From contig CAMJMQ010000015.1 of NCBI GenBank assembly GCA_946407065.1, positions 708 through 64,707 of the forward strand: a stretch of 64,000 nucleotides of DNA, read 5' to 3'. The first letter of the stretch is position 1, and every line of letters starts with the position of its first letter. The DNA is from an uncultured Clostridia bacterium (GTDB taxonomy: Bacteria; Bacillota; Clostridia; Oscillospirales; Acutalibacteraceae). The notes beneath the pieces were generated by a model. The model worked only from the letters and a program-made list of their open reading frames with translations, had not been told where the DNA came from and ran no database searches. The translations under genes and the position numbers were made by a program. Positions 27,801 to 51,475 of the stretch are shown piece after piece.

Positions 27801-28237
27801 GCCTCCTCGGCGGTCAGCCGGAGCAGTGAGGGGTCAAAGGTATGTTCGCGATACTCCTTGCCGTAGCAGTAGGCGACAAAATCCATGAAGTAAAACAGAT
27901 TCTCTACGCACAGCTCGGCCTGCTGAACGGTGACCCTTTGACCGGTGTGGGCGGAGCGGTTGCCGACCTTGCGGATGAAGTCCATGCGGCGCAGGATATC
28001 GTCGCCCGCGATATCGCGGAACTCCTCGGTAGACATCAGCACCGCGAGCGTTTCGTTATACGGCAGCTTGAGATCCTTGTCGACCGAATACATCCACTTG
28101 ACCGCGAACTCCATCGCCCTGCGGCAGTTGAACGCGCAGGCGTCGGGGTCGATATGTAAGATACGCTCCGCACTGATCGCCACATCCGCAAAGCTCTCAA
28201 ACCCCTTGTCCTGTTTTAAGAAATCAAAGTTGGTCAT
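24869..28237 (-). CDS. hsdR: Type I restriction enzyme R subunit with N-terminal DUF4145-like domain and coiled coil
   Basis: Start taken as MTNFDFLKQ (ATG 28235-28237) behind AGGTGA. Helicase motifs MATGSGKT and LLICDEAHRS. The N-terminus contains RKVGNRSAHTG, followed by a KAENERLKAETAKLAEKE coiled coil. Confidence 0.92.
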   Translation of the reverse strand: MTNFDFLKQDKGFESFADVAISAERILHIDPDACAFNCRRAMEFAVKWMYSVDKDLKLPYNETLAVLMSTEEFRDIAGDDILRRMDFIRKVGNRSAHTGQRVTVQQAELCVENLFYFMDFVAYCYGKEYREHTFDPSLLRLTAEEAMAMVSDGEKVDIDSLKAENERLKAETAKLAEKEIDLEKLTAENQSLREELTARRSEQQQTYTPKPIDLTEFATRKIYIDTMLTDAGWTQGRDWLDEVELPGMPNHSEVGYADYVLYGDDGRALAVIEAKRTCKDPAVGRQQAKLYADLLEKKYHRRPVIFLTNGFDTRIDDGIYPERRVAAIWSKRDLEKFFNLQTMRRPLKNIYINRDIAGRYYQEAAVKAVCDAFDKKNRRKALLVMATGSGKTRTIISLCDVLLQHGWVKNILFLADRTSLVTQAKRSFVNLLPDLSVTNLCEEKDNYTAHCVFSTYQTMMGCIDEVKDDEGKLFTCGHFDLLICDEAHRSIYNKYKDIFNYFDAPLVGLTATPKDEVEKNTYEVFDLNDNEPTYAYELSQAVKDGFLVDFMSVETRLKFIEQGIVYDDLSDEDKAQYESTFTDEDGEMPDSIGSGALNEWIFNTDTIREVLHILMTNGLTVDYGQKIGKTIIFAKNHNHAEKILEVFNKEYPHLQHGFAKVIDNHVNYAQSLIDEFSDPQKMPQIAISVDMLDTGIDVPEVLNLVFFKKVMSKAKFWQMIGRGTRLCENLLDGKDKDKFYIFDFCGNFEFFRMNKGKPSANNAALQSAIFHLKAQIVFKLQDLEYQTTDLIAFRESLVDDMVHKTLELNRENFAVRQHLRYVEKFSSKDSYTALTYEDTLTIRDELAPLIIPDEDDAKAVRFDALMYGIELCYLAGKKYGKRRKDFFGKVQGVASVANIPEIMAQSELINKILHTDYFDNAGINEFEHIRECLRNLMKYIPYRGDIYNTNFDDEILSIDWNESELDSDDLQNYREKVEYYIRQHQGEGAIAKLKGNVPLTSEDIAGLEELLWNDLGSKEEYEAQYGTKPLGEFVREIVGMDMRAAKEAFAEYLSDANLDDRQIYFVNQIVEYIIHNGVLKDMSVLQEPPFTDRGSIVEVFTDLSLWYRIRQTIELINNNAAA

Positions 28238-28250
28238 GTTTATCACCTGA

Positions 28251-29024
28251 TTACTCATTCAATGAATCAATATCTATATATAAATTCTGAAATCTAACTA
28301 TATCATTTTCTTGATATTCAATCTTTAGCCTTTTGAATATCCTTTTTATCAATTTGATATTCCTGTTAAAGGCTGTTCCTCTCCACAAATATTTATCTAT
28401 AACATTTGTTTGGAGATGCTCTTTTATTGAATTAACAGTTTCTTCTCTAAGTGATGAATAGCTTTTAAATGCCTCTTCTATTGTAGGGTGTCTGCCTGCC
28501 GGGGTATTATCATGTATGTGATTATAAAATATATTATAATAGTATTCACCATCAAAATCTTGAATAATCTCTATTCCTCTTTTTAAATGTTTATTTGTAA
28601 TTGTGTGATCGACAAACAAATCCGAATCAAATATGATTCTGCAATATTTTGCCTGCAATTCTAATTGATACGCCTTTACGATAGCGGGTCCGAATACTGT
28701 TGTATTTGAATAATAGTATTTGCCTTTTGTAATTCCTCCCCGAAAGTATAGTCCTGTATCTTCATACAGTTCAAGTTCCGCCAAATGAATTGCTGTCAAT
28801 AATAAAGGTAAGCTATCAGATTCTTGATCGTTAGTTGTTAACACTATACTGTCAGAAAAGAAAGCCATTCTTAGGTTTAGTTTAGCTGAATTATTAAACA
28901 GGTATTGAAAATTATTGACAAAATGAAGAAGCTTATCAACTATCTCAATATTGTTTTCATCTAGAACCAGATTACTAAAGCCTAGTATATCAATAAAGGC
29001 TACATAACCAAATTCGTATTCCAT
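28251..29024 (-). CDS. Class III nucleotidyl-cyclase-like protein (stand-alone, 257 aa), function unknown
   Basis: Start trimmed to MEYEFGYVAFIDILGFS (ATG 29022-29024) behind GGAGG. Ordered motifs FIDILGFS, MAFFSDSIVL, FRGGITKG and VFGPAIVKAYQLE parallel the FxD[IV]xGF[ST] / xD / RxGIxxG / VxGxxVNxAxR pattern of class III cyclases. Strongly AT-rich. Confidence 0.5.
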   Translation of the reverse strand: MEYEFGYVAFIDILGFSNLVLDENNIEIVDKLLHFVNNFQYLFNNSAKLNLRMAFFSDSIVLTTNDQESDSLPLLLTAIHLAELELYEDTGLYFRGGITKGKYYYSNTTVFGPAIVKAYQLELQAKYCRIIFDSDLFVDHTITNKHLKRGIEIIQDFDGEYYYNIFYNHIHDNTPAGRHPTIEEAFKSYSSLREETVNSIKEHLQTNVIDKYLWRGTAFNRNIKLIKRIFKRLKIEYQENDIVRFQNLYIDIDSLNE

Positions 29025-29098
29025 TTTGTCCTCCAAGCTATAATACGAAATATGAAATAACAACTCCAAACATATCGTTTTACTTGATTAATTCTTTC

Positions 29099-29863
29099 TC
29101 ATCTATAAATCGCTAATACATCCAGAGTACGATAATCTTCATCAACCTTAATTGGTTCTATGCTTTTGTTTTTGGAATCAATCGATTTTCTTGCAGCCCT
29201 GTTCAATGACAAAAAGTCTTTTAATGGATCAAAAAACGGTTTCTTTTCCTCAATAACTCTTGATGATACTCTTGCCAATATAGTAACTTCTTCATCCGTA
29301 TCAACAAACTCCTGTATATCAATTGTTAAAAGGTCTTTATTCAGTTTGCTGCACAGCAGTATATCTTCGTTGCTATCAATAATAACTGGAATTTTGGACG
29401 CGTTAGCTCCTGATATTAATGATTCTAAAGCGGATTGCTCATTTTCATCAGCAGTTTGGTTTTGCATTGCAGATATGAGAAAGGGCTTGAACTGTTCTAC
29501 CAGTTGCATCATATCGAAACTTTCCGGAATACTGATATTTGCATCTATTTTTATGATGCTTCCCCTCGGCACCGTTTTTAATTCAAATTCACTTGATTCT
29601 GTAAAATCAAAGTAATCTTCACCTTCTTTTTTCTTTTCTAATAACGCTTCAAATTCATTGCAGTCGTATAAAGCACTTTCAGTAACTTTAGCAGTATACT
29701 TTTTATCTGCTGAGGCATCAGCTTTGATTCCTGAAAAATCTACGCCTATTCCTTTTCCTTTTGCAACCTCATATTCTGAAACTTCAATTTGCTTTTTTCC
29801 TGTGATCAATGATGTGTATTCACCAACAGTTTTTTTGTCATAATATAATATCTTGCCAAACAT
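29099..29863 (-). CDS. Hypothetical acidic protein (254 aa), partner of the cyclase-like gene
   Basis: ATG at 29861-29863 lies 13 nt after the hsdS stop, behind GAAAGGA. No TM segment and no motif I can name. AT-rich. Confidence 0.6.
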   Translation of the reverse strand: MFGKILYYDKKTVGEYTSLITGKKQIEVSEYEVAKGKGIGVDFSGIKADASADKKYTAKVTESALYDCNEFEALLEKKKEGEDYFDFTESSEFELKTVPRGSIIKIDANISIPESFDMMQLVEQFKPFLISAMQNQTADENEQSALESLISGANASKIPVIIDSNEDILLCSKLNKDLLTIDIQEFVDTDEEVTILARVSSRVIEEKKPFFDPLKDFLSLNRAARKSIDSKNKSIEPIKVDEDYRTLDVLAIYR

Positions 29864-29876
29864 TGTTTTGTCCTTT

Positions 29877-31064
29877 CTATCCAAAGTATTCCTGCATTAA
29901 TGATTTTTTGAGGGTTTCGAGCTTGTCGATACTCTGCTGTACGGTTGCCTTTTGCTCTTCGACTTGTGTGACGAAATCTGCGAATTGATTTTGTAAATCA
30001 ACTGGCGGAACAATTATATTAATTTTTTTTAGCATTGCTATAGACAGATACGCTACCGTTGAACCGGCTTGAAAACTATCAATCTGCTTTTTTATATATC
30101 TTGAATCAAAGAGATATGTAAGAAATAAAGGTGTAATAGCTTTATCGAGATTATATAGCCAACTAATCATTCCATCTTGAAAATAAAACTTGTCGTTAGT
30201 TTTTACAATGTAACACTTTCCCAATGTTCCTCGTGAAGTAATGAGAATATCTCCCGTTGTTGGAACTAAACTCTTTCCTAACAATTCTTCATATTTTTTC
30301 TCTGAAATGAAAAGGTCGTTAGTTAAACAATCTGTTTCAATTAGTTCAACCAAATTTGAAACTCTAACGAATGGTACACCAACAGTTGTTTGTTCACTTT
30401 GATATATTCTTTTACTCGAACTGATCGTACATAAATCACTTAGTAAACAAGAAGGGTAATGGTTACAATTCTGTTCAATATCCCCAAACATCTCAACAAA
30501 TCGGGATTTGATAAGCTCGTCCAGTTTATTTAGAGTTTTTATTTGAAGATTGATAATACTGGTGAGCAAATCAATTCGCTTGGCTATTTCCAATTGCTTT
30601 TCTCTTACTGGTAGTTTTACGATAATTCTTTCTAGGTTCTTTCTACTTATTCTAATTCTAGTAGCACCTGCAAGAAAGCTAGTAATTTGTTTATAATAGC
30701 ACGGAGAGTTTAAAAAGCACAAAAGATAACGCTTATCAACAATTTCATCGTTTATTCTAAGAATACTGCAATCAACTGCGGTAATCATCCTCTCGATTTT
30801 AGGAGGGATTATACAAGCCCGTCCCACAGGATCAGGAAGCCTTGACACAAGTATATCTCCCGGATAGACTTCAGTGCAACCGAGACGAAGCATAGTTTCT
30901 TCACTGATGTACTTAGCTCTTTCTTTCTTTTCCAAATACACACCGTTACCGATGTTCCCGGTTTGTATAAGCCTGATACCTGAATCAGATTGATCTTTGG
31001 ATTCAATCCAATCACCATCAGTAAAAAGTGTACAGCATTCTTTAATTGTGATTTCTTTATTCAC
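29877..31064 (-). CDS. hsdS: Type I restriction-modification specificity subunit
   Basis: GTG start overlaps the hsdM stop. Two target-recognition halves are separated by conserved helices (LPVREKQLEIAKRIDLL / PPVDLQNQFADFVTQVEEQK). AT-rich, unlike hsdM and hsdR. Confidence 0.88.
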   Translation of the reverse strand: MNKEITIKECCTLFTDGDWIESKDQSDSGIRLIQTGNIGNGVYLEKKERAKYISEETMLRLGCTEVYPGDILVSRLPDPVGRACIIPPKIERMITAVDCSILRINDEIVDKRYLLCFLNSPCYYKQITSFLAGATRIRISRKNLERIIVKLPVREKQLEIAKRIDLLTSIINLQIKTLNKLDELIKSRFVEMFGDIEQNCNHYPSCLLSDLCTISSSKRIYQSEQTTVGVPFVRVSNLVELIETDCLTNDLFISEKKYEELLGKSLVPTTGDILITSRGTLGKCYIVKTNDKFYFQDGMISWLYNLDKAITPLFLTYLFDSRYIKKQIDSFQAGSTVAYLSIAMLKKINIIVPPVDLQNQFADFVTQVEEQKATVQQSIDKLETLKKSLMQEYFG

Positions 31065-32559
31065 TCAACATCCCCTCCAATTCTTCCAGCCCTTTAGTAA
31101 TCTCTGCTTCGAGCTGTTTGAGGTCGGCGAGGAGCTCGCTGGTGGGCGGGTATTCGACGGGGATATACTCGACCTTTTTGTACTTGTTGATCGAGAGGTC
31201 ATAGCCGTTTTCGGCGATCTCGCTCTTTTCGACAAAGAAAGATTTTTCGGTGCGTTCGCGGTCGGCTTCTTTCTCTCGATTTTGGAATCGCTCGATGATA
31301 TCGGGAATATCGTTCTCCGCTACCGGTGTGCGCTTGTCGTCAAGGCTCAGACCGTCCGCCTGCATATCGTAGAACCACACCTTGTCCGTGCCGCCGTGTC
31401 CGGTCTTGGTGAAGATCAGGATTCCCGTGCTGACGCCCGCGTAGGGCTTGAACACGCCCGAGGGCATGGAGATCACCGCTTCGAGGCGGTTGTCCTCGAT
31501 CAGCGCTTTGCGGATCGCCTGATGTGCCTTTGACGAGCCGAAGAGTACGCCGTCGGGTACGATGCAGGCGCAGCGGCCGCCCACACGCAGCATCCTGAGA
31601 AACAGCGCGATGAAGAGCAGCTCGGTCTTCTTTGTCTTGCAGACCTTCAAGAGATCAGCCGATACCGAGTCATAGTCCAGACTGCCCTTGAACGGCGGAT
31701 TGGCGAGGATCAGGCTGTACTTACCCTTATCCTGATTCTGATCGCTCAGGCTGTCGCGGTATTCGATATAGGGGCTCTCGATGCCGTGGGTCATCATGTT
31801 CATCGCGCCGATACGCAGCATGGTGCGATCCATGTCGTAGCCGAAGAACATGTGATTCATGAAATGATCCTTCTTTTGCTTGTTGTAGAAGATATCTTCC
31901 TTGCGGTACTTTTTCAGATATTCCGCCGTCGTGATCAAAAAGCCCGAGGTACCGCACGCGGGATCGCAGATCACGTCCTCGGGGGTGGGCTGCATGAGCT
32001 GTACCATCATGCTGATGATATGGCGCGGGGTACGGAACTGACCGTTTAAGCCCGACTGTGAGATCTTGCTGAGCAGATATTCGTAGGTATCGCCGCGGAC
32101 GTCGGCGCTCTGATCCTTGCTCATGAGGTCATAGATCACATCGAGCGAGTCGACGACCTTGGAGAGCACGAGCGGAGTGGGGATCATAAAGATCGCGTCA
32201 TCCATGTATTTGGCATAGGCACTGTTCTTGTCCGTGTGAAGGTTCTTGATGAAAGGGAATACGTCATCCTGCATGACGGAGTACATCCTGCCCGCGGGAA
32301 AGTCATGGAACACCGACCACTTGAGCGTTTTGCCGTTGACCTTACGCCCCGCGATATCCACTTCATCCGCAAAGATGCTCTCGAACGGCAGTCCGAGCAT
32401 AGCGCATTCCTTTGCCTTGGTGTTATCCGCGTCGTCGAGGTCGTGAATAAACATCAGGTAGGTGATCTGCTCGATGACCGTCAGAGGGTTGACGATGCCG
32501 CCCGCCGCGAAGATATCCCATAAGCTGTCGATTTTGTTTTTCAGTTCTCCTGTAATCAT
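31057..32559 (-). CDS. hsdM: Type I restriction-modification N6-adenine DNA methyltransferase subunit
   Basis: HsdM N-domain, AdoMet motif DPACGTSGF, catalytic NPPF (LILANPPFKG). Confidence 0.93.
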   Translation of the reverse strand: MITGELKNKIDSLWDIFAAGGIVNPLTVIEQITYLMFIHDLDDADNTKAKECAMLGLPFESIFADEVDIAGRKVNGKTLKWSVFHDFPAGRMYSVMQDDVFPFIKNLHTDKNSAYAKYMDDAIFMIPTPLVLSKVVDSLDVIYDLMSKDQSADVRGDTYEYLLSKISQSGLNGQFRTPRHIISMMVQLMQPTPEDVICDPACGTSGFLITTAEYLKKYRKEDIFYNKQKKDHFMNHMFFGYDMDRTMLRIGAMNMMTHGIESPYIEYRDSLSDQNQDKGKYSLILANPPFKGSLDYDSVSADLLKVCKTKKTELLFIALFLRMLRVGGRCACIVPDGVLFGSSKAHQAIRKALIEDNRLEAVISMPSGVFKPYAGVSTGILIFTKTGHGGTDKVWFYDMQADGLSLDDKRTPVAENDIPDIIERFQNREKEADRERTEKSFFVEKSEIAENGYDLSINKYKKVEYIPVEYPPTSELLADLKQLEAEITKGLEELEGMLSE

Positions 32560-33617
32560 GCTTCATTCTCCCTGTTCCATGTGTAGGAGGTGTAGCGACC
32601 TCCGCTGATTTTGATGATCTCGCCCTTGCTTTGCAGGTCGGCAAGCGTGCGTTGTACCGTGACCTGACTGATATCGGGGCATTGTTCCATGATCTCAGAT
32701 TTGGTGATTCTGCCGAGGGTGCCTTTGATGATCTCACGGATGCGCTCGGGTTTACTGAGGTTCTTTGCCGACAACACCTCTACGCGTGAAGCAAACTCTC
32801 TGTGTGCCGATACCAGTACACCAAGCATATATTGCACAAACGGGGCATAGTCGTTCCTGCCCTCGTGCCAATTCTCGGAGCTGTACTGCAAGGCTTCATA
32901 GTAGGTATCCTTGCTTTGCTCGATGATCTTCTCGATACTGATATATTTGCCGACGATGTAGCCGCTGCGATAGAGCAAAAGCAGGGTGAGCAGTCGGCTC
33001 ATGCGGCCGTTACCGTCGTTGAACGGGTGAATGCAGAGGAAGTCGAGGATGAACATCGGGATCAGCAGCAGAGGATCGGCGTCGGGATTTTGTAAGGCTT
33101 CATTGTACGCGGCGCAGATAAATTCGATCGCGTCGGGCGTTTCCCATGCCGGTACGGGCTGGAACCGAACAAATCGATTGCCCTGTGCGTCTTCTTCGGC
33201 AATCACATTGTCGGCATTTTTGTAGCTGCCGCCGATGGAACTGCCGCTGTATTTGTAGAGGTCGCGGTGGAGCTGGAGGATCATGCCCGGTCTGAGCGGG
33301 ATATAATCATAGTTTTCGTGGATCGTTGCGAGAACATCGCGGTAGCCGGCGATCTCCTGCTCACTGCGATTGCGGGGATTGGTCTTGTCGAGGACGATCT
33401 TCTTGATTCGATCGTCGGAGGTGTAAATGCCCTCGATCTTATTGGACGCCTCGGTGCTTTGTATCTTGGCGATCTCCAACAGCTGAGTGAGGGTGTCGCT
33501 TTCCGCTTCGATATACAGCTTTTGCTGTCCCTTGTATTCGTGGATCTTCGTCAACATCGATACGATATCGGGCTGCAACAGCGCATGGATCCCCTCCACA
33601 TAATTCGGCTTTTTCAT
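32556..33617 (-). CDS. Fic/DOC family protein with C-terminal winged helix
   Basis: Active-site motif HPFNDGNGRMSR. N-terminal SNKIEG fits the (S/T)xxxE(G/N) inhibitory helix. 4-nt overlap with the hsdM start. Confidence 0.88.
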   Translation of the reverse strand: MKKPNYVEGIHALLQPDIVSMLTKIHEYKGQQKLYIEAESDTLTQLLEIAKIQSTEASNKIEGIYTSDDRIKKIVLDKTNPRNRSEQEIAGYRDVLATIHENYDYIPLRPGMILQLHRDLYKYSGSSIGGSYKNADNVIAEEDAQGNRFVRFQPVPAWETPDAIEFICAAYNEALQNPDADPLLLIPMFILDFLCIHPFNDGNGRMSRLLTLLLLYRSGYIVGKYISIEKIIEQSKDTYYEALQYSSENWHEGRNDYAPFVQYMLGVLVSAHREFASRVEVLSAKNLSKPERIREIIKGTLGRITKSEIMEQCPDISQVTVQRTLADLQSKGEIIKISGGRYTSYTWNRENEA

Positions 33618-35800: not shown

Positions 35801-36063
35801 AATAAAGAACCTCCAATATAAAATAAGATGATGGACATGGCGCCCCGCCATGCCGATTTTTGCTTCTGTTGTCTAACGAGCGAATCTTATCGCCGTTGTT
35901 TTACGTGAAGTGCTTCATGTTTCATCACATCCTTTTTGTCAATAGACAAGATATATAAATTGTTATCTGCATTTTTAGTTAAAAATACAGTGGTACCATT
36001 CATTAAAATATGTTATACTATTATTCAACCAATTATATTTTTGTTGAATAAAGGAAGGTGATC

Positions 36064-37434
36064 ATGGTGCCTGAAGAAACGAAAAACAAAAACAGCGCCG
36101 CAAAACTCAGAGCCAACAACAGATATGCAAAAGACAAATATGAAGAGATCAAATTTCGCGTCCGAAGGGGCGAAAAGGACAAGCTCATGCAGTACGCGCG
36201 CGAGCATGATTATTCGCTCAACGCATTTATTTACGACGCAGTATGCCATTACCGTCAATATTTAGATGAAGCCATCTCGGATCAAAACGCTGAGGAGCGA
36301 ATAGTTGATTCCGCCATTGCTGACGCTCCGCTGAGCCTGTCCCTGAATAACGAAAACAGCTACAGTGTTGTCAATCTGTTCGCAGGGATGGGCAGTATGT
36401 CTCTTGCGTTCGCTCAGGCAGGCTTTGACGTTATCCGCGCTTATGAGCAGGATCACGCTGCCTGTGAAATGTTTCGTTCCTTGTTCGGAAGCGAAAGGCT
36501 GACAGAGGGCGATATCCGCAATTGTGATATCGACGATATACCGTCTCCCGATGTGCTGGCGATTGAATTCCCCAAAATTTCTACTGATAGTTTTGCAGAT
36601 ATCCATGACACGGAGTGTTACCTTGAAAGTGTCTTTGGAATCATTCTGAAAATCATCGAAAAGAAGTTCCCTTATATCGTCTATTTTGAGCTTGATGAAG
36701 AAGAACCGATTGAGAACATCAATCTCGCGGACATGTCAAGTGATGATTTATTCATCCAAAGTAATATCAACGGGTTAAAAAAACACTATTATGAGCTATT
36801 CATCGACAAACTGAGAGAGCTTCATTATGAAGTAAAGGTCGATACAACTTACAAGGCAAGCGAGGCGTCTGATCTTTCGCAATCAGGCAAAAGAAGATAT
36901 TTGATCGCAGTCAATGAGGAGGTCGCGTCGCTGTTCTATATGCCTCCGAGCATACCTGTTTTTAAGCCCAAGCCTGCTGTTGAAGTGATCCATCGGGATC
37001 AAAAGCAAAACAAGTTTTACTATTACCGCAACAACATTAGCTTTGACCGCTATGTGATCGGAGCTGTCCAAAGCCGACATATGCTCTACCGTATCCATCT
37101 GAGCAAGGTGTTCGGATGTCCCGACGGCATGTGTCCTGCCTTGAACGCAAGCATGGTCAACAAGCGTAATACTGTAGCGCTGAGGGATGATTTCGGAGTA
37201 AGACAGCTGACGCCGGGCGAGTATCTGATGTTCAAGGGTTGTCCGGAGAGCGTTCGATTCCCGAAGGAACTGAGCCTAGAGGACAGATACCGATTAGCAG
37301 GAAGCTGCGTCAACGTGCCCATCACGGAAAACTACGCGCAGTCGATCAAGAGCTTTCTTGACTTGGATACCCGTGAGCCGATGATAAAAATGGCAGAGCA
37401 CATGAGTTTTTTCCAAAAGAAGCAAGAAGAATAA
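36064..37434 (+). CDS. C5 cytosine methyltransferase homolog lacking the catalytic Pro-Cys motif, with an N-terminal RHH-like extension
   Basis: Motif I LFAGMGS, motif II AYEQD, motif VIII QSGKRRYLIAV and motif IX/X RQLTPGEYLMFKGCP...GSCVNVPI are present. The position of GGPPCQxFS reads AIEFPKISTDSF (no Cys), and ENV reads ELD. Confidence 0.65.
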   Translation: MVPEETKNKNSAAKLRANNRYAKDKYEEIKFRVRRGEKDKLMQYAREHDYSLNAFIYDAVCHYRQYLDEAISDQNAEERIVDSAIADAPLSLSLNNENSYSVVNLFAGMGSMSLAFAQAGFDVIRAYEQDHAACEMFRSLFGSERLTEGDIRNCDIDDIPSPDVLAIEFPKISTDSFADIHDTECYLESVFGIILKIIEKKFPYIVYFELDEEEPIENINLADMSSDDLFIQSNINGLKKHYYELFIDKLRELHYEVKVDTTYKASEASDLSQSGKRRYLIAVNEEVASLFYMPPSIPVFKPKPAVEVIHRDQKQNKFYYYRNNISFDRYVIGAVQSRHMLYRIHLSKVFGCPDGMCPALNASMVNKRNTVALRDDFGVRQLTPGEYLMFKGCPESVRFPKELSLEDRYRLAGSCVNVPITENYAQSIKSFLDLDTREPMIKMAEHMSFFQKKQEE

Positions 37435-38160: not shown

Positions 38161-39597
38161 TTGGCAACAATCAGGAAACGGAATGACAGTTATCAGATCG
38201 TTGTATCGTGCGGTTACGATATCAACGGAAAACATATATGCCGTTATAAGACATATACTCCCGAGAAGGGAATGACAAAGCGACAAATCGATAATGAGCT
38301 TAACCGTCAGGCGGTGCTTTTTGAAGAGGCGTGTAAAAACGGATTAGCATCGATTGCAGGAAAAGTAAAACTGTCAGAGTTTATTCCGATATTCTTTCAA
38401 GAGTATGCTGTGCCGAAACTGAAGGCAAAGTCAATCGTCGGTTACAATGCTCTCGTACCCGTTGTCGACGCGGCTCTCGGGCATCTGAGAATCGACAAGA
38501 TCCAGCCCCATCATCTAAATAGCTTTTATATAAACTTGGCAGAGGAGGGTGCTCGGCGTAAGGTGTCATATTCTCCTGTAGTCGATCTGAAAGCGATCGC
38601 CAAGGAGAAGGGGCTGACCGCTACGCGGATCGCTCGTGATCAAGGTGTGGGCGCTTCATCAATCCGTGCTGCATTCAAGGGCAATAACGTTTTCAAAAAG
38701 ACGGCGGTTTCGATCTGTTCCGCACTGGATCTGTCCATGTCAAAAGCATTTGAGGCAGTCGGCGCTGATGTTCCCCTCTCTACTGAGACCATTCGGCATT
38801 ATCACCGATTTCTATCCTCTGTTTTCAGCTATGCTGTTAAATCAAAGATTATCGCCACAAACCCTTGTGCGCGTGCTACGATACCCAAGGCTAAAGGAAA
38901 TCAAAAAGCAAAGAAAAGCAAGAAGCACACAAATCACTTTGATGAAGAAGAAGTAAAGCAGGTGTTGAAGTTGCTTGAAAACGAGGATATACAACGCAGA
39001 ACAGCCATCAAACTCTTGCTGCATACAGGTATGCGTCGAGAGGAGATCTGTGGATTGGAATGGTCGGATATCGATTTTATTCATTCGGTGATCTCAGTGG
39101 AACGCGCCTCCGTATATATTTCAAAAAATGATTACACTGAAGAATCAGGGATCATTACCGATACCACAAAAACCGATAGTTCTACACGCTGCATTAAAGT
39201 TTCAGAATCAGTGATTCAAATGCTAAAAGAATATAAGGAGTGGCAAACGCAAAGGCGGTTGCAGCTGGGAGACAGATGGGAGGATTATGACAGAATTTTC
39301 ACTACAGCTGTAGGCACACCGATCCATCCCGATACACTCACAAGATGGTTTTCGGAATTCACTAAGAGGAACGGTTTTCCTCATGTGACAATTCATGGAT
39401 TGAGACATACCAACGCGACATTGTTGATCAATTCCTATGTACCTATCACGACGATCGCCGCGCGCCTCGGTCACGCAAACCCCTCCACAACAACCAAAAT
39501 ATACACACACGCAATTAAACGCGCGGATGCCGTTGCAGCAGAACAGCTTGAGGTAATGCTTTCATTACCCGACACTGAACAGGGAGAAAGCACCTGA
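38161..39597 (+). CDS. Tyrosine integrase (apparently intact)
   Basis: TTG start. 478 aa. Catalytic residues in context GMRREEICGLEWSDID, HGLRHTNATLLI, LGHANPSTTTKIYTH. Followed by TTTGACAGCTA direct repeats (39612-39650). Confidence 0.9.
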   Translation: MATIRKRNDSYQIVVSCGYDINGKHICRYKTYTPEKGMTKRQIDNELNRQAVLFEEACKNGLASIAGKVKLSEFIPIFFQEYAVPKLKAKSIVGYNALVPVVDAALGHLRIDKIQPHHLNSFYINLAEEGARRKVSYSPVVDLKAIAKEKGLTATRIARDQGVGASSIRAAFKGNNVFKKTAVSICSALDLSMSKAFEAVGADVPLSTETIRHYHRFLSSVFSYAVKSKIIATNPCARATIPKAKGNQKAKKSKKHTNHFDEEEVKQVLKLLENEDIQRRTAIKLLLHTGMRREEICGLEWSDIDFIHSVISVERASVYISKNDYTEESGIITDTTKTDSSTRCIKVSESVIQMLKEYKEWQTQRRLQLGDRWEDYDRIFTTAVGTPIHPDTLTRWFSEFTKRNGFPHVTIHGLRHTNATLLINSYVPITTIAARLGHANPSTTTKIYTHAIKRADAVAAEQLEVMLSLPDTEQGEST

Positions 39598-40272: not shown

Positions 40273-40685
40273 TTAACTTATGTTTGCTGTTCTGTTGGTG
40301 AAGATCATATCCAGCTGCTCGGCGGCGGCTGCGTCGGCGGACTGGATGGCGTGGACGTAGATCTTGCTGGTCGTTGTCGGGTCGGCGTGGCCGAGTCGGG
40401 CGGCGATGGTGGTCAGCGGGATGCCGGAGTTGATCATCAGGGTCGCGTTCGTGTGACGCAGGCTGTGGATGGAGATATCCGGCAGGTTATGCGCTCTCAC
40501 GAAATCACGGAACCAACAAAAGGGGGAACCCCGAAAAGCCCCGCTTTTTGGGGAAAGGAGGAGTCGCGACGTGAGCAGGAGGGTGATTTCGTCAAGAAAT
40601 CGCCCTCAGCGAGCACAGCGAACGACGACGCACCGCAGGACACCATGAACATAAAACTGCCGTTTCGTTTGATGATGGACGCCAT
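40273..40685 (-). pseudogene. Tyrosine integrase remnant (N- and C-terminal pieces only, middle replaced)
   Basis: 40497-40685 encodes MASIIKRNGSFMFMVSCG (compare MATIRKRNDSYQIVVSCG of integrase 2). 40273-40500 encodes HSLRHTNATLMINSGIPLTTIAARLGHADPTTTSKIYVH. The junction contains a family 2 repeat at 40522-40563. Confidence 0.8.
40522..40563. repeat. Family 2 short repeat (reverse orientation) inside the integrase remnant
   Basis: The reverse complement CTCCTCCTTTCCCCAAAAAGCGGGGCTTTTCGGGGTTCCCC matches 12603-12643 and 52843-52883. Confidence 0.65.
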
Positions 40686-41368
40686 TACTGCTCACCTGCC
40701 ATGCGGGCAACTTCCGCATCCCCGATCTTTCGGGTCATATCCTCTATCGTATCGAGCTTCTCACGAAGCTCTTTTTTTATGTGATCCTTTGCTGATTCCT
40801 GCACATCGAAGAGGGCGAGCTTCATCCGTTTATCACGCTTTCCGGCTTCATCGGAATAACCGAGGTCGCCCTGATTCCGCTTATAATAATCAGTCAAGTA
40901 ATCATGCTGTTCGCTGACCTCTTTCTGATACTCTGTCATAGCAACGACCAGATTTTGAAACGATCCGCTGTCGATAAAGCGGTTCATCACGCTCTGCAGG
41001 CTGTCGGAATTCTCTGTATCTATAAAGGTATACACATAGTTCTTCATGAACTCCAATTCAGCGACAGCTCCCTCACTCAACCCTGTCACATCGGTGATGT
41101 AGCGGCGGTCTTTGTCGGTGGTCTTGGCGTCGGTCATGCCGAGCAGATAGTCGGTCGATACCTTGAAATACTTCGCGTACATGACGATGAAGTCGGTGGT
41201 GATGTTGCGGGTGCCGTTGTAGTGCTTGGTGATGGTAGACACATCGCAGCCGATCTCATCGGCGATGTCCTGTCGCGCCAATCCGGTGTCGTCTATCAGC
41301 TTTCTCAATCTTTGAACCGTTACATCGGTTTTGTCACGCCTCGGCGCTTCGAGCTGTAAACCTCTCAC
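40685..41368 (-). CDS. XRE-family HTH regulator (repressor-like) with a long C-terminal domain
   Basis: LRKLIDDTGLARQDIADEIGCDVSTITKHYNGTRNITTDFIVMYAKYFKVSTDYLLG is a Cro/CI-type HTH. It is divergent from the Xis/primase genes. Confidence 0.8.
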   Translation of the reverse strand: MRGLQLEAPRRDKTDVTVQRLRKLIDDTGLARQDIADEIGCDVSTITKHYNGTRNITTDFIVMYAKYFKVSTDYLLGMTDAKTTDKDRRYITDVTGLSEGAVAELEFMKNYVYTFIDTENSDSLQSVMNRFIDSGSFQNLVVAMTEYQKEVSEQHDYLTDYYKRNQGDLGYSDEAGKRDKRMKLALFDVQESAKDHIKKELREKLDTIEDMTRKIGDAEVARMAGEQ

Positions 41369-44558: not shown

Positions 44559-44805
44559 ACCGACGGCTCTCCCCACCACAACCCCACCTTTACACCACCC
44601 TGCCATCACCCCGGGGGTCAAAATCTCCGGGCGAATCGAAACCGGACAACGGCGTGGGCTGTCACGTACACAACCGCATATTCAAAGGGGGTATTAATAT
44701 ACTTTACCAATATATTTTTCATAATTTGTGTATTGTGAATCATAATAATCTGTGATATAATGACCATATGATAGGGTATTATATCCATTTTTTGGAGGTG
44801 CCACA

Positions 44806-46200
44806 TTGAATATTAGATTAAAGAACATAGGAATCATTAAGAATTCCTCCGTTGCTATCGACGGAATAACAGTGATAACAGGAAAGAACAATTCCGGTAA
44901 AAGTACATTCGGAAAAGCTGTATATTCAGTCGTCTCAGCTGCTGAGAACCTGTATGAGAGTGCAACAGCAGATATTGTAGGATATGCAGAAGGACTTGTC
45001 ACAAAACGTTTGAGATCCAGTAAAATCAGTTTTTTGTTCAGAGGGTTTCTAAATCTCTCATTTGATAATATGAGTTTTCTGGAAGATGCCTATAATCAAA
45101 GTTATCCTCCGGTATCCTCTATCCCTGAATTGAAAGATTTAGTTATGTTCATTATATCAGCAGTTGACGGAATCAAGCTGGAGCAGGAAGAAGAATTGCT
45201 GATCAAAGCCGGCTTGATCAAGCCGGGGGATTTAGAGGAGGCTAAAACAAAGCTGTCCCGGGAGCTGAGGGATGTTCCGAAGCTGATCGACCAATACAAT
45301 GACTTTACCTTATATGAACAACGGAAATTAACCGAAACATTACGTGAGGAATACAGCACGCAGCTCACCCCTGTAAAACGAAAAGACATCACTGAATGCG
45401 AGATAGTTGTGCAGACTGATGACGGAGTATATCGAGCCGCATATGACGTAAAGGGGCACAAAGTCAAATACTCCGGGATTATGCCGTTTTCCGAAGAAGA
45501 TAATGTGTTGTTTATTGATGATGCTGCCATAATAGATGAAATCAAACTAAACAGAAAGCTCCGTAATAACCCATTTACCGGAATAGAGAATTTTGAGTTA
45601 TATATCAGAGCTTTAAAACATGATGTTGCTTTATCCAGAAAACTGGAAAAGAAATCAAAGGGCATTATCGGAACCATGATAGATGAGGATCGCTACCGTG
45701 AGGTTGAAGCCCTAATCAATACCGTTATCAATGATGATATCGTTGAAAAAGATAACAGATATGTTTATTCTTCCGATGGTCTGGAATTATCGAATCTTGC
45801 TACCGGCGCAAAAATCTTTTTGGTTCTGAAAATACTGTTGATGAACGGTTCTATCAATAAGAATACCATCTTGATCCTTGATGAACCGGAATCCCATTTG
45901 CATCCGGAGTGGCAGAATCTTTTTGCGCAAGTTGTCACTTTACTGGTAAAGGAGATGGGGATCAAAGTCGTTTTGACCAGCCATTCGCCGAATTTTGTAT
46001 TGGCGATGCAAACTTACAGCATGAAATATAAGCTTGGCGATATCACAAATTTCTACATGACCGTAAAAGACGAAGACGGATACAGGGTCGACTACAAGCA
46101 TGTTGATGATACGACTGAGATATATGCTGATTTTGCCAAGTTTTTCTCTCAAATCAAGGCAAAATATGATATGCTGAGATATGGTGACGACAATGATTAG
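44806..46200 (+). CDS. ABC-type (AAA_15/AAA_21-like) ATPase
   Basis: TTG start behind GGAGGTG. Walker A GKNNSGKST. LSNLATGAK signature-like motif. Walker B ILILDEPESHLHP. H-loop VVLTSHSP. 464 aa. AT-rich. Confidence 0.8.
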   Translation: MNIRLKNIGIIKNSSVAIDGITVITGKNNSGKSTFGKAVYSVVSAAENLYESATADIVGYAEGLVTKRLRSSKISFLFRGFLNLSFDNMSFLEDAYNQSYPPVSSIPELKDLVMFIISAVDGIKLEQEEELLIKAGLIKPGDLEEAKTKLSRELRDVPKLIDQYNDFTLYEQRKLTETLREEYSTQLTPVKRKDITECEIVVQTDDGVYRAAYDVKGHKVKYSGIMPFSEEDNVLFIDDAAIIDEIKLNRKLRNNPFTGIENFELYIRALKHDVALSRKLEKKSKGIIGTMIDEDRYREVEALINTVINDDIVEKDNRYVYSSDGLELSNLATGAKIFLVLKILLMNGSINKNTILILDEPESHLHPEWQNLFAQVVTLLVKEMGIKVVLTSHSPNFVLAMQTYSMKYKLGDITNFYMTVKDEDGYRVDYKHVDDTTEIYADFAKFFSQIKAKYDMLRYGDDND

Positions 46201-46909
46201 CAGTAAAGACGTTGAATCCTATCTGGTATCAAATTATCAGAACGAAAAGTACTATAAAACTTTCAAAGAACTGTCGCAGAGCAACTCCGATGATCCGTCG
46301 ACGTTTTTAGTGGAAAACACTGAAAAAGCATATAGCCTGGATGCTATCAAGGCTTCCTTGATAAAGAAAGGTGACCTTCGTTCTGCTGACGCTATATATA
46401 TACGCCACAAGGGGAAACGCTCAACGATATATATCATTGAGTTTAAGAAAGGTTTTTTGAAAAAAATCAATAAGACGAACTTTGATCCCGAATTGTGGAA
46501 ATGCACCGAACACGGTGAAACAGAATCGTGCGATACCGGAGCTAAGTATTTTAAACAATACTTAAAGAAAACAAAAAGCGAATTGAAGATGTCTCTGTAT
46601 ATGAAGCTGTCCGAAAGTTATTTATTGCTTCAAAATGCGATCTGTCCTCGCTGTCCGGATACAGTAACAGGATATGATGTGGTATATCTGGCTGTTGTTG
46701 ACGGCGTGAACGAGGATCCCCTGGATACCATGGGTGACGGATTGAGCGAATTAGCAGGCGAATCGGACAATAATAATACCCTAACTACTCTGAAAAAGGG
46801 GCTCAAGGATTATATCTTGACAGCTGATACAGGACAAAAGCTCCTGTATGATAACACCGATATTCTCTTAAAAGAACAATTTGAAGCCATGCTTCCCGGT
46901 ACTGCATAA
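46193..46909 (+). CDS. Hypothetical protein with PD-(D/E)xK-like motif and a Cys/His cluster
   Basis: The ATG at 46193 overlaps the ATPase stop (ATGATTAG). SADAIYIRHKGKRSTIYIIEFKKG gives D ... E-x-K with typical spacing. Also CTEHGETESC ... CPRCP. AT-rich. Confidence 0.5.
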   Translation: MISSKDVESYLVSNYQNEKYYKTFKELSQSNSDDPSTFLVENTEKAYSLDAIKASLIKKGDLRSADAIYIRHKGKRSTIYIIEFKKGFLKKINKTNFDPELWKCTEHGETESCDTGAKYFKQYLKKTKSELKMSLYMKLSESYLLLQNAICPRCPDTVTGYDVVYLAVVDGVNEDPLDTMGDGLSELAGESDNNNTLTTLKKGLKDYILTADTGQKLLYDNTDILLKEQFEAMLPGTA

Positions 46910-46927
46910 GACCAAATATAACCATAT

Positions 46928-46953
46928 TGCCCCCGATATAACAGTCGGGGGCA
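46928..46953. terminator. Bidirectional hairpin terminator
   Basis: TGCCCCCGA-TATAACAG-TCGGGGGCA lies between convergent genes. Confidence 0.6.
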
Positions 46954-47870: not shown

Positions 47871-48137
47871 ATGACTATACTTGAAGATCTGTACTACGGA
47901 AACATTTCTCCGTGGAGTGATTACGAGCCGTGCCCCGAAGTGACGGTCGTCGCGGCAAAGAACGTGAAAACCATTGAGAAGCTACAGAGCTGCGTCACCG
48001 ATGATGAACAGAAAGAACTGCTTGAGAAGCTGATCAACGGTCACAGTGAGCTGACAGCCCTTACTGACAAAGACGCATTTCTCGCCGGATTCAAGCTCGG
48101 CGCTAAGGTGATGATGGAGATCCTAGCGAAACCTTAG
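47871..48137 (+). CDS. Hypothetical small protein
   Basis: 88-aa ORF with good coding look. No motif named. Confidence 0.45.
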   Translation: MTILEDLYYGNISPWSDYEPCPEVTVVAAKNVKTIEKLQSCVTDDEQKELLEKLINGHSELTALTDKDAFLAGFKLGAKVMMEILAKP

Positions 48138-49669: not shown

Positions 49670-49857
49670 AATAAAACCTCCTTTGTTTCGGTGTGTGTAT
49701 ATTAGCGTCACAAGGGAGGTTTATCAATATGTATCGTACACAAAGATGAGCGGGGATATTTGGGTATGTTGGGTGGAAATATTCGTTCTTGCAATCAGGG
49801 CGGGATGTGTTATAATTTTGGTATATTTATTTGTCGAACGGGCAGGAGGAAAGAGAT

Positions 49858-50517
49858 ATGGCAGAGAAAGCAGGAGTGATCTACATACTGACGAATCCGT
49901 CGTTCCCGGAGTATGTCAAGATCGGATACGCGGATGATATCAACAAACGGCTGAGCCAGCTCAACCGCAGCGAGTGTATACCGTTTGCGTTCCGCGTGTA
50001 CGCGACCTATGAGGTTCCGTCGCGACTCTCCGACCTGAAGATCCATTCCATCATCGACAAGCTGAATCCTGATCTGCGCTCTGTAGAGAGTTTCAACGGC
50101 AAGAAACGTGTGAGAGAATTCTACGCCATGTCCCCGGAGGATGCCTATTCGATTCTGGAGGCGATCGCGGAGATCCACGGCTGCGGCGATAAGCTGAAGC
50201 TGATAGCGATGAGCGAAGAGGAGAAAACAGCTGAGCAGACGGCTCAGGAGATCGATACCGAAAGCTCCGAGCGTTTGTCAAACTTCTCGTTCACTAAGTG
50301 CCAAATCCCCATAGGCGCGACCATCACCTATGCATACGACGAAAGCATCACCTGCACCGTATGCGGTGAGAAGACGGTGGAGTATGAGGGCGGCACCTAT
50401 TCGCTCACCGGACTTGCCAAGCTACTCTCCGGCAAGAAGTATGCCGTCGCAGGCCCACGTTTCTTCAAGTACAAAGGCGAATGGCTCAACGATATCCGCC
50501 AGCGGCTGGGAGTGTGA
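49858..50517 (+). CDS. GIY-YIG superfamily T5orf172/MUG113-like protein with C-terminal DUF4357-like region
   Basis: GVIYILTNPSFPEYVKIGYADDINKRLSQLN ... REFYAMSPEDAYSIL. AGGAGGA RBS. Confidence 0.65.
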   Translation: MAEKAGVIYILTNPSFPEYVKIGYADDINKRLSQLNRSECIPFAFRVYATYEVPSRLSDLKIHSIIDKLNPDLRSVESFNGKKRVREFYAMSPEDAYSILEAIAEIHGCGDKLKLIAMSEEEKTAEQTAQEIDTESSERLSNFSFTKCQIPIGATITYAYDESITCTVCGEKTVEYEGGTYSLTGLAKLLSGKKYAVAGPRFFKYKGEWLNDIRQRLGV

Positions 50518-50581
50518 GTAATTCAATATTTCCCCATAAGAAGTGCATATAAATAATTGATGATATGGAGAAAAAGTTAAT

Positions 50582-51475
50582 ATGGATTGTAGTTTCAAGC
50601 AGTTAATAGATCAATTAAATAGAAGCCGGAAAATATATGATGATAACCGCGATAAAACAATACAGTCCTATTTGGAAGAATTTGGAATAATAGAAGATTA
50701 TATAAGTTTTTCTCTTAATTTAGGATGTCATCTTGATAGCTTAATTCCAGAACCAGAAAAGCCTTTCTTGCAATTTGCGCTTCTTCGAATACATGAACAA
50801 TCGTGTAAAGTATATCATGAAGCAACGATTCTTATGGAAAATGGTTCTGCCTCAGGTGCAATGGCACGATGGCGAACCCTTTTTGAATTATCCGTGGTCG
50901 CCAACATATTAGTTAAATATCCAGATTTAGCAAAAAAATATATAGAATACTCAAAAATAAGTGATTTCAAATTTGCAAACAAACTCAACAAATATCGCGA
51001 AAAACTTAATCTTACCCACTATAACATGGATGCTTATCCGCTAATAGAACAAGACTATAAAAAGGCAAAAGCTGAATATGGTTGGGAAGGAAGAAACTCT
51101 TATGAATGGGCAATAAATGACGATATTAAAAATCCCAATTTATTTACTTTAGCACAAAACATAGGGCAAGAGTATATGTATGCGTATGTTGATGAAGCTC
51201 ATATGTATAACCATCCTTCTCCCCGATACATTTTAAACGACCTCGGAGTTACTCCAACTCAACACGATGATCATATACGTTATCTGTTTTCTCCTTTTGA
51301 TTTGAATCTGCCTCTCCAATTAATTGTTATAAGTTTGCATCAGGTTAACTGTGCTTGTATTATAGGATACTCAGAATTAGAAACAGCAGATATTTCTGAG
51401 ATGACTGATTATTTGCATACGAATAATAACTACCCCAAAATGATGGTTTCTCTTATTGAAACCAAATGCGTTTAG
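50582..51475 (+). CDS. Hypothetical helical protein (possibly DUF5677-like)
   Basis: 297 aa. Strongly AT-rich relative to its neighbours. RWRTLFELSVVANILVKYPDLAKKYIEYS recalls DUF5677. This is a weak, recall-only assignment. Confidence 0.35.
   Translation: MDCSFKQLIDQLNRSRKIYDDNRDKTIQSYLEEFGIIEDYISFSLNLGCHLDSLIPEPEKPFLQFALLRIHEQSCKVYHEATILMENGSASGAMARWRTLFELSVVANILVKYPDLAKKYIEYSKISDFKFANKLNKYREKLNLTHYNMDAYPLIEQDYKKAKAEYGWEGRNSYEWAINDDIKNPNLFTLAQNIGQEYMYAYVDEAHMYNHPSPRYILNDLGVTPTQHDDHIRYLFSPFDLNLPLQLIVISLHQVNCACIIGYSELETADISEMTDYLHTNNNYPKMMVSLIETKCV

Follow-up and report, generated by a model that had tools for sequence, protein, structure and literature searches.

Positions 44806-46909 on the forward strand of the 64-kb stretch of Clostridia DNA analysed here (contig CAMJMQ010000015.1; the whole stretch is called the window below) hold two overlapping genes, the first encoding a 464-amino-acid (aa) ABC-type ATPase and the second a 238-aa partner protein. 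We conclude that this cassette, which lies on an integrative mobile element in the genome of a Clostridia bacterium from gut or rumen, is probably a system of two genes for defence against phages (invaders), in which an OLD-clade ABC ATPase is coupled to a nuclease of the PD-(D/E)xK type. Established by the analysis are the two genes and their motifs, the invariance of these motifs throughout the family, the strict synteny and the portability of the pair, and the layout of secondary structure predicted for the partner. Complex formation, trigger, substrate and defence phenotype are proposed by analogy with the HEC-02, WonAB and PD-T4-4 systems. A preliminary description of the same DNA, which set the pair against Septu, PARIS and Gabija, had implied that an ABC ATPase joined to a PD-(D/E)xK protein was a new pairing. 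It is not, as this architecture is already known from HEC-02, WonAB and PD-T4-4, all three of them experimentally validated.

The partner protein has no match in Pfam, PADLOC-DB v2, NCBIfam or PHROGs, and profiles of either 7 or 133 sequences find no PDB sequence match even at E ≤ 10. An exhaustive profile (hidden Markov model, HMM) search of 1.84 billion representatives places it in a family of 268 clusters (50% identity) at E ≤ 1e-3, or 180 clusters at E ≤ 1e-10, nearly all of whose members are 210-250 aa long. The impression of a tiny family is wrong because it came from a word-indexed homologue search that undercounted the relatives of the partner, recovering only 6 of them as against the 268 found exhaustively. 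Cluster names and a further homologue search gave no informative labels, only “hypothetical protein”.

Conservation within this family is concentrated on a small set of residues. Across 133 aligned members with ~25% mean column identity, D66, E83, K85 and K138 are invariant; D50, S64, G87, C104 and D170 are conserved in at least 93% of members, and F84, F88 and V168 in at least 90%. E141 is also near-invariant. The D...ExK motif picked out in the preliminary description corresponds to the first three of these positions, and the invariance of D66/E83-F-K85 is far beyond chance.

The predicted structure places the same residues where a PD-(D/E)xK active site would have them. An AlphaFold2 (AF2) model of the partner built on the 133-sequence alignment reached a predicted local distance difference test score (pLDDT) of 90.3 and a predicted template modelling score (pTM) of 0.87, and is the model used here; a 7-sequence alignment had given a pLDDT of 43. 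In this model, D66 stands at the head of a strand (residues 67-73) that pairs with the strand bearing E83-x-K85 (76-85) to form a beta-hairpin, after which come a 40-residue helix bearing K138 and E141 and then a strand (160-169) that ends in D170. With the D opening one core strand and the ExK in the strand that follows, the modelled hairpin has the arrangement that defines PD-(D/E)xK phosphodiesterases.

Searches with individual family members returned weak matches. In Pfam, SduA_C (the Shedu nuclease domain) was matched by 6 members and was the sole family matched more than once, with NERD and PDDEXK_10 matched once each; in PADLOC, HEC-02B was recurrent (~11 of 133 members), and Cas4c and a type II methyl-directed restriction endonuclease (REase) were each matched once. 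The nuclease families among these weak matches are of the PD-(D/E)xK type (SduA_C, NERD, PDDEXK_10, Cas4c and HEC-02B), and, though weak, this sequence-side support for the fold all points the same way. The conserved motif and the modelled strand order together make it likely that the partner is an active PD-(D/E)xK-type nuclease.

Following the ExK strand, family members carry an insertion with conserved cysteines. The preliminary description had reported a CxxH...C...CxxC cluster in the partner, of which C104 (96% conserved), C113 (89%) and C154 (77%) hold up across the family, while H107 and C151 are not conserved. In 6 of the 133 members C113 is replaced by His, a ligand-like substitution that fits a metal site with C104 and C154, and the three residues may bind a metal. 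Assignment to the Cas4/AddB-type Fe-S nucleases was rejected, as the arrangement of cysteines differs and only three are conserved in the partner family.

The upstream ATPase was correctly assigned from the outset to the AAA_15/AAA_21 group (Pfam AAA_21, 2e-18; AAA_15, 7e-18), and reading of its open reading frame (ORF) and motifs bears out the 464-aa length and the Walker A, Walker B and H-loop elements. It matches phrog_14430 of PHROGs over its full length (2.6e-33), and its best PADLOC model matches are all defence ATPases: PD-T4-4_A (78.6 bits), NsnB, HEC-02A, AriA, PtuA, GajA and Old, those to PD-T4-4_A, NsnB, HEC-02A and AriA being at the level of the core only. The protein extends ~70 aa past the H-loop, with no TOPRIM match in Pfam or PADLOC.

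Between the P-loop and the ABC signature lies a variable middle, in which close relatives share 49-64% aa identity (58-69% at the nucleotide (nt) level), compared with 82-95% aa (85-92% nt) at the two ends. Distant members retain 21-23% aa identity in the middle. Inserts at the corresponding place in ABC-ATPase defence proteins are thought to set trigger specificity (Payne et al. 2024, 10.1101/2024.01.29.577857), and by analogy this segment is a putative sensor region.

The arrangement of the two genes is consistent with coordinated expression. The partner start adopted here is the one kept in homologues, with M1 and I2 invariant, and it gives the 8-nt overlap with the ATPase stop that the preliminary description had taken as a sign of translational coupling. 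The overlap recurs identically at homologous loci L001-L004, L007 and L016, although it is not universal, with small intergenic gaps at L011 and L012/L013. It probably couples translation of the two genes; their expression in a fixed proportion is put forward as a proposal only. Upstream of the ATPase gene, TTGTGA-17-TATAAT is the top promoter-like site in the region and a putative promoter, and it falls within the portable module common to loci with other flanks. The 3′ end of that module is marked by a hairpin of -20.3 kcal/mol (z = -5.0 against shuffles). The preliminary description had called it a terminator; the hairpin itself stands, but it has no T-run and terminator prediction did not call it. 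The cassette is, as had been remarked, more AT-rich than its surroundings (39.7% GC versus 51.6-51.7% in both flanks).

That the pair is syntenic elsewhere is borne out by a sample of 12 distinct partner homologues, 98% to ~25% identical, all 12 of which have an ATPase-family gene directly 5′ (at contig edges, an ATPase C-terminal fragment that aligned to the family). These upstream ATPases are 420-490 aa long and of the AAA_15/AAA_21 type. The flanks of the loci vary: L001 lies in a defence island with TIR, AbiTii, dynamin-like GTPase and integrase genes; L003-L005 are flanked by a C5 methylase, a MutH-like gene and a Vsr gene; L006 and L007 by TnpV and DUF6809; and L011, L012 and L016 by housekeeping genes. 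Between the window and loci with unrelated flanks, nucleotide homology starts at 44640-44715 and ends at 46929-46940, that is, from just 5′ of the promoter-like site through the hairpin, and the cassette is therefore a self-contained, horizontally moving module. The GC content of all cassette copies is 31-38%. The nearest copy is in a metagenome-assembled genome (MAG) of an uncultured Ruminococcus (96.6% nt identity), and an Anaerobutyricum MAG has a partner 29% identical to that of the window. Overall, the family is seen in gut and rumen Firmicutes and on one gut phage contig.

Comparison of two window segments (45000-45600 and 46230-46909) with L001 and L002 reveals a mosaic. The 3′ third of the ATPase gene is 82-90% identical to the window at both loci, and ~40 nt into the partner gene they switch to an allele whose protein is 38% identical. 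This pattern suggests modular exchange of the nuclease, and the position of the switch suggests that the first few, conserved residues of the partner may dock on the ATPase.

The gut-phage contig MT835532.1 (L018 3332-5258, human faeces) encodes an ATPase of the same family (213 bits, full length, with the cassette ATPase profile). The gene after it overlaps and encodes a 192-aa partner, to which the partner family HMM gives 35 bits. This partner keeps Y-x-F-D, S-x-D, EFKxG and K-x-x-(D/E)-S without the Cys insertion. The system is therefore also phage-borne and a minimal form of it exists, in which the Cys insert would appear to be dispensable. A tblastn search of phage and plasmid collections with the partner gave no match, and the phage variant surfaced through its ATPase match only.

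The pair could be a very divergent subtype of a catalogued system, HEC-02 most likely and otherwise PD-T4-4 or WonAB, with a partner family that is not separate, a reading that we consider unlikely. HEC-02 is a two-gene system in which both genes are required for defence (Payne et al. 2024, bioRxiv 10.1101/2024.01.29.577857; PADLOC-DB v2). As in the cassette, its two adjacent genes form an operon in which a small protein of the PD-(D/E)xK type (NERD-like) is encoded after an ABC ATPase, and the order of motifs is the same (Y-D, D, ExK, then K on the next helix). HEC-02A is among the top matches of the cassette ATPase, HEC-02B is the sole PADLOC family matched repeatedly, if weakly, by the partner family, and the phage variant, which lacks the Cys insert, has a length (192 aa) between that of HEC-02B and that of the partner family. 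Against these likenesses, the ATPase is 464 aa long here versus 342 aa in HEC-02, and the partner is 238 aa versus 169 aa for HEC-02B, with a Cys insertion and a C-terminal extension. The HEC-02 systems were described in Proteobacteria, embedded in Hma systems (Payne et al. 2024, 10.1101/2024.01.29.577857), in contrast to the gut and rumen Firmicutes and the gut phage contig of the cassette family.

Profile comparisons likewise fall short of membership. The PADLOC match to HEC-02A (7.6e-21, 72.8 bits) is not full length, its best stretch covering positions 182-292 of 338; BLASTP against Dickeya HEC-02A gives 34% identity over 73 aa plus the P-loop; and the cassette ATPase HMM gives HEC-02A 57 bits, which come from two segments of the core (P-loop and Walker B), on a scale where the phage-borne true member scores 213 bits. 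For the second gene, the window partner and most family members match no PADLOC model, and the ~11 weak matches to HEC-02B reach 8e-5 at best. The partner family HMM gives 4 bits for HEC-02B and about -1 bit (-0.8) for WonB. Alignment of the partner family by hhalign with a 37-sequence HEC-02B profile has a probability of 15% (P = 0.0018, 22 columns), and with 11 WonB/novel REase sequences from the WonAB supplement a probability of 8% (P = 0.004), the two alignments spanning 22-45 columns. The aligned columns are exactly the D...ExK hairpin, and so would be shared by any two PD-(D/E)xK families. Newer catalogues or structure-based clustering may possibly fold the family into HEC-02.

Operons of the type “OLD-ABC ATPase + novel REase” were reportedly first noted by Krishnan et al. 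2020. WonAB is such an operon (Adams et al. 2025, PMC12137116), in which the ATPase motifs and nuclease residue K71 are both essential, WonA is needed for the stability and toxicity of WonB, and the system shuts off translation without degradation of genomic DNA. It shares with the cassette an OLD-clade ABC ATPase, a small PD-(D/E)xK variant with a D...E-x-K-G hairpin, and a location on a mobile element. In contrast to the 238-aa partner, WonB (~140 aa) and the novel REases span ~140-190 aa and have an N-terminal Cys motif and a CD...ELKGSD signature, and gene order varies within the WonAB family. The cassette ATPase HMM gives three WonA-like ATPases (OLD-ABC) 20-44 bits, again in the P-loop and Walker B only, all three being truncated at ~400 aa in the supplement.

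PD-T4-4 pairs an NTPase with a PD-(D/E)xK nuclease and forms higher-order complexes (Vassallo et al. 2022, PMC9519451). Like the cassette, it combines a P-loop (ABC) NTPase with a PD-(D/E)xK nuclease on an element resembling an integrative and conjugative element. PD-T4-4_A is the best PADLOC match of the ATPase (1.4e-22, 78.6 bits), compared by model only and over two stretches within positions 205-375 of 460, and no match to PD-T4-4_B was obtained in PADLOC, be it with the window partner or with the 133 family members (E ≤ 0.01). On these sequence comparisons, the pair appears to resemble HEC-02, WonAB and PD-T4-4 in its working, yet is a demonstrable member of none of them. Whether it belongs to an already catalogued system, a question raised in the preliminary description, is thus answered with yes for the architecture and with no for the protein family.

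PARIS, Septu, Gabija and OLD also combine a nuclease effector with an AAA_15/AAA_21 ABC ATPase of the OLD clade, which serves as its sensor or regulator. The effectors of PARIS, Gabija and OLD are of the TOPRIM type, and that of Septu is an HNH nuclease. All four fail as assignments because the TOPRIM or HNH effector is absent: the AriA model of PARIS matches the ATPase (2.4e-20) but the partner has no TOPRIM or DUF4435 match; PtuA models of Septu match at 7e-14 or weaker (NCBIfam PtuA at 31.9 bits against a cut-off of 500) and the partner has no HNH match; and for Gabija and OLD no TOPRIM domain is fused to the ATPase. Menshen, which needs its defining NsnA and NsnC, and a reading of the ATPase as MADS mad3 were likewise rejected, the defining effector domain being absent in both cases.

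It is plausible, and we propose tentatively, that the partner stands for an effector family of its own, in which the PD-(D/E)xK protein is larger and carries a conserved insertion with three Cys that possibly bind a metal. Together with its dedicated ATPase it would then form a separate, unnamed system. This system would be specialised to Firmicutes of the gut and rumen and to the phages of these bacteria, and would diversify as ATPase middle regions and entire nuclease alleles are swapped.

The mobile setting of the cassette raises a second explanation, in which the pair is an addiction, toxin-antitoxin-like or other maintenance module that stabilises its mobile element. The Pfam label of AAA_21 (“putative AbiEii toxin, Type IV TA system”), the position of the cassette inside an element with integrase, XRE and primase genes, its recurrence beside the mobile-element genes TnpV and DUF6809, and the toxicity of overproduced WonB in the related WonAB system (PMC12137116) all fit such a role. 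We nevertheless hold it to be quite improbable. For WonAB, tests have ruled out simple sequestration of a toxin by its antitoxin (PMC12137116), several cassette copies sit between housekeeping genes with no recognisable mobile element, and others lie in a defence island or beside restriction-modification (R-M) genes; maintenance and defence are, moreover, not mutually exclusive. Least probable is that the partner is a non-nuclease structural or DNA-binding adaptor, with the ATPase acting in repair or replication of element DNA like RecF, RecN or SbcC: the lack of a significant nuclease fold match or PDB sequence match, a weak SMC_N match of the ATPase and the primase gene directly before the cassette would suit it, but the SMC_N score of 28 bits is under the Pfam cut-off of 40, the primase is absent from all other cassette contexts, and invariance of D66, E83 and K85 in exact PD-(D/E)xK spacing and strand positions, with D50, E141 and D170 near-invariant as well among members only ~25% identical, is hard to explain without catalysis.

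Several observations weigh against the reading of the cassette as a two-gene defence system with a PD-(D/E)xK nuclease. Foldseek comparison of the partner model with PDB and BFVD found no significant neighbour (best E = 0.5 and E = 0.06, respectively). The top PDB matches include the PD-(D/E)xK nucleases HamA, BsmI, FokI, Mus81 and MunI, which are not evidence by themselves because E is at least 0.5 and the TM-score ~0.2. With no fold match, it is the motif, the strand order and the weak sequence matches described above that carry the nuclease assignment. As the preliminary description had anticipated in declining to place the pair in a named family, both proteins score below the level of membership for every catalogued defence system, whether in Pfam, PADLOC, NCBIfam, PHROGs or the per-member searches. 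Several copies lie among housekeeping genes and not in defence islands. The extended -10-like site that it had reported is present as TG-TATAAT and is the best in the region, but such sites are not enriched, with 11 promoter-like sites found against 8.2 ± 2.5 in shuffles.

If the pair is a defence system of this kind, its operation can be sketched from HEC-02, WonAB and PD-T4-4. The cassette promoter would drive both genes, and the start/stop overlap would fix the proportion of the two proteins. The ATPase would dimerise through its ABC head and keep the nuclease in a complex, while its fast-evolving middle would sense a cue of infection. ATP binding or hydrolysis would then license the nuclease to cut nucleic acid (DNA or RNA) at a metal site formed by D66, E83 and K85, with K138, E141 and D170 nearby, and cleavage would halt phage replication, possibly by abortive infection.

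The cassette lies within the integrative element and defence neighbourhood of the window, whose features are collected in the table. The full integrase and the nearby integrase fragment suggest nested or decayed integrative elements; no tRNA genes were found in the 64-kb window. An XRE gene adjoins the cassette also at L002 (2373-2487), L007 and L010, and is missing from this place at L001 and L003-L006. The gene may have a regulatory role or may just belong to one carrier element. DUF6809 accompanies the cassette downstream in the window and upstream at L006 (1437-1694), where TnpV is also present, and L007 (23-286). The shared DUF6809 points to a common family of carrier elements.

Genes inside R-M operons are often defence candidates. 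On the reverse strand at 28251-29884, between hsdR and hsdS, are two genes of ~34-36% GC that encode a 272-aa protein without a Pfam or PADLOC match and a 261-aa DUF6414 protein. Downstream of the cassette, the T5orf172 and DUF5677 genes (49831-51475) may form a second small defence cassette.

Table. Features of the two-gene cassette and its surroundings, in window coordinates
Feature	Position	Strand	Basis or remark
Type I R-M operon enclosing two AT-rich genes	24869-32559		
SoFic-like Fic protein	32556-33617	-	PADLOC SoFic 4e-38; the Type I R-M genes follow directly
C5 methylase	36058-37434		
Tyrosine integrase, full	38161-39597	+	
Integrase C-terminal fragment, 75 aa	40273-40500	-	~700 nt from the full integrase
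XRE regulator	40685-41368		
Primase, 846 aa	41720-44260		cassette follows directly
Putative sigma-70-like promoter TTGTGA-17-TATAAT with TG extension (TGATATAAT)	44733-44761	+	10/12 matches; TG precedes the -10
Shine-Dalgarno GGAGG	44794-44798	+	8 nt 5′ of the ATPase TTG; read from sequence
ATPase gene, encoding the ABC-type ATPase of the OLD/AAA_15-AAA_21 clade, 464 aa	44806-46200	+	TTG start, ORF list; Pfam, PADLOC and PHROGs matches
Walker A GKNNSGKST, aa 26-34	44881-44907	+	kept in all family ATPases
Variable ATPase middle, ~aa 61-300, P-loop to signature	44986-45705	+	identity profile across relatives
ABC signature-like LSNLATGAK, aa 328-336	45787-45813	+	SNLATG(A/S)K in all members
Walker B/D-loop ILILDEPESHLHP, aa 355-367	45868-45906	+	family alignment and sequence
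H-loop TSHSP, aa 391-395	45976-45990	+	family alignment and sequence
Start/stop overlap ATGATTAG, 8 nt	46193-46200	+	partner ATG over ATPase stop
Partner gene, encoding the predicted PD-(D/E)xK-type nuclease of an unnamed family, 238 aa	46193-46909	+	ATG start; alternative ATG 46181 gives 242 aa; motif conservation, AF2 model
Predicted catalytic beta-hairpin S64-A-D66 ... I82-E83-F-K85-K-G87-F88	46382-46456	+	D66, E83, K85 100% conserved; AF2 strands
Insertion after the ExK strand, ~aa 86-126, with C104 and C113 (C113 at 46529-46531)	46448-46570	+	family alignment
K138-L-S-E141-S142 on the long helix, aa 114-153	46604-46618	+	K138 invariant
C154	46652-46654	+	after the long helix; 77% conserved
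D170, end of strand 160-169	46700-46702	+	93% conserved
10-bp G+C-rich hairpin	46928-46953	.	lies where the partner and XRE genes converge; portable module ends here (3′)
XRE-family helix-turn-helix gene, 94 aa	46980-47264	-	convergent; phrog_8, phrog_3
DUF6809	47871-48137	+	downstream of the cassette
T5orf172/GIY-YIG protein, 228 aa	49831-50517	+	PADLOC candidate PDC-S57, 4e-100
DUF5677, AT-rich, 297 aa	50582-51475	+	follows the T5orf172 gene

What is new here is the nuclease family; the architecture and the likely logic were already known, and no new principle or concept is involved. The cassette probably serves defence, and the family of its nuclease is unnamed and of moderately large size. 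That family, 268 clusters strong and strictly linked to its ATPase, is missed by Pfam, PADLOC v2, NCBIfam and PHROGs, an annotation gap through which defence annotation of gut and rumen Firmicutes currently overlooks the cassette. If validated, it would add a fourth nuclease variant to the ABC-ATPase and PD-(D/E)xK systems, next to HEC-02, WonAB and PD-T4-4. Its versions with and without the Cys insert, and nuclease alleles swapped on a near-identical ATPase C-terminus, could reveal how such nucleases dock on their ATPase and are licensed by it.

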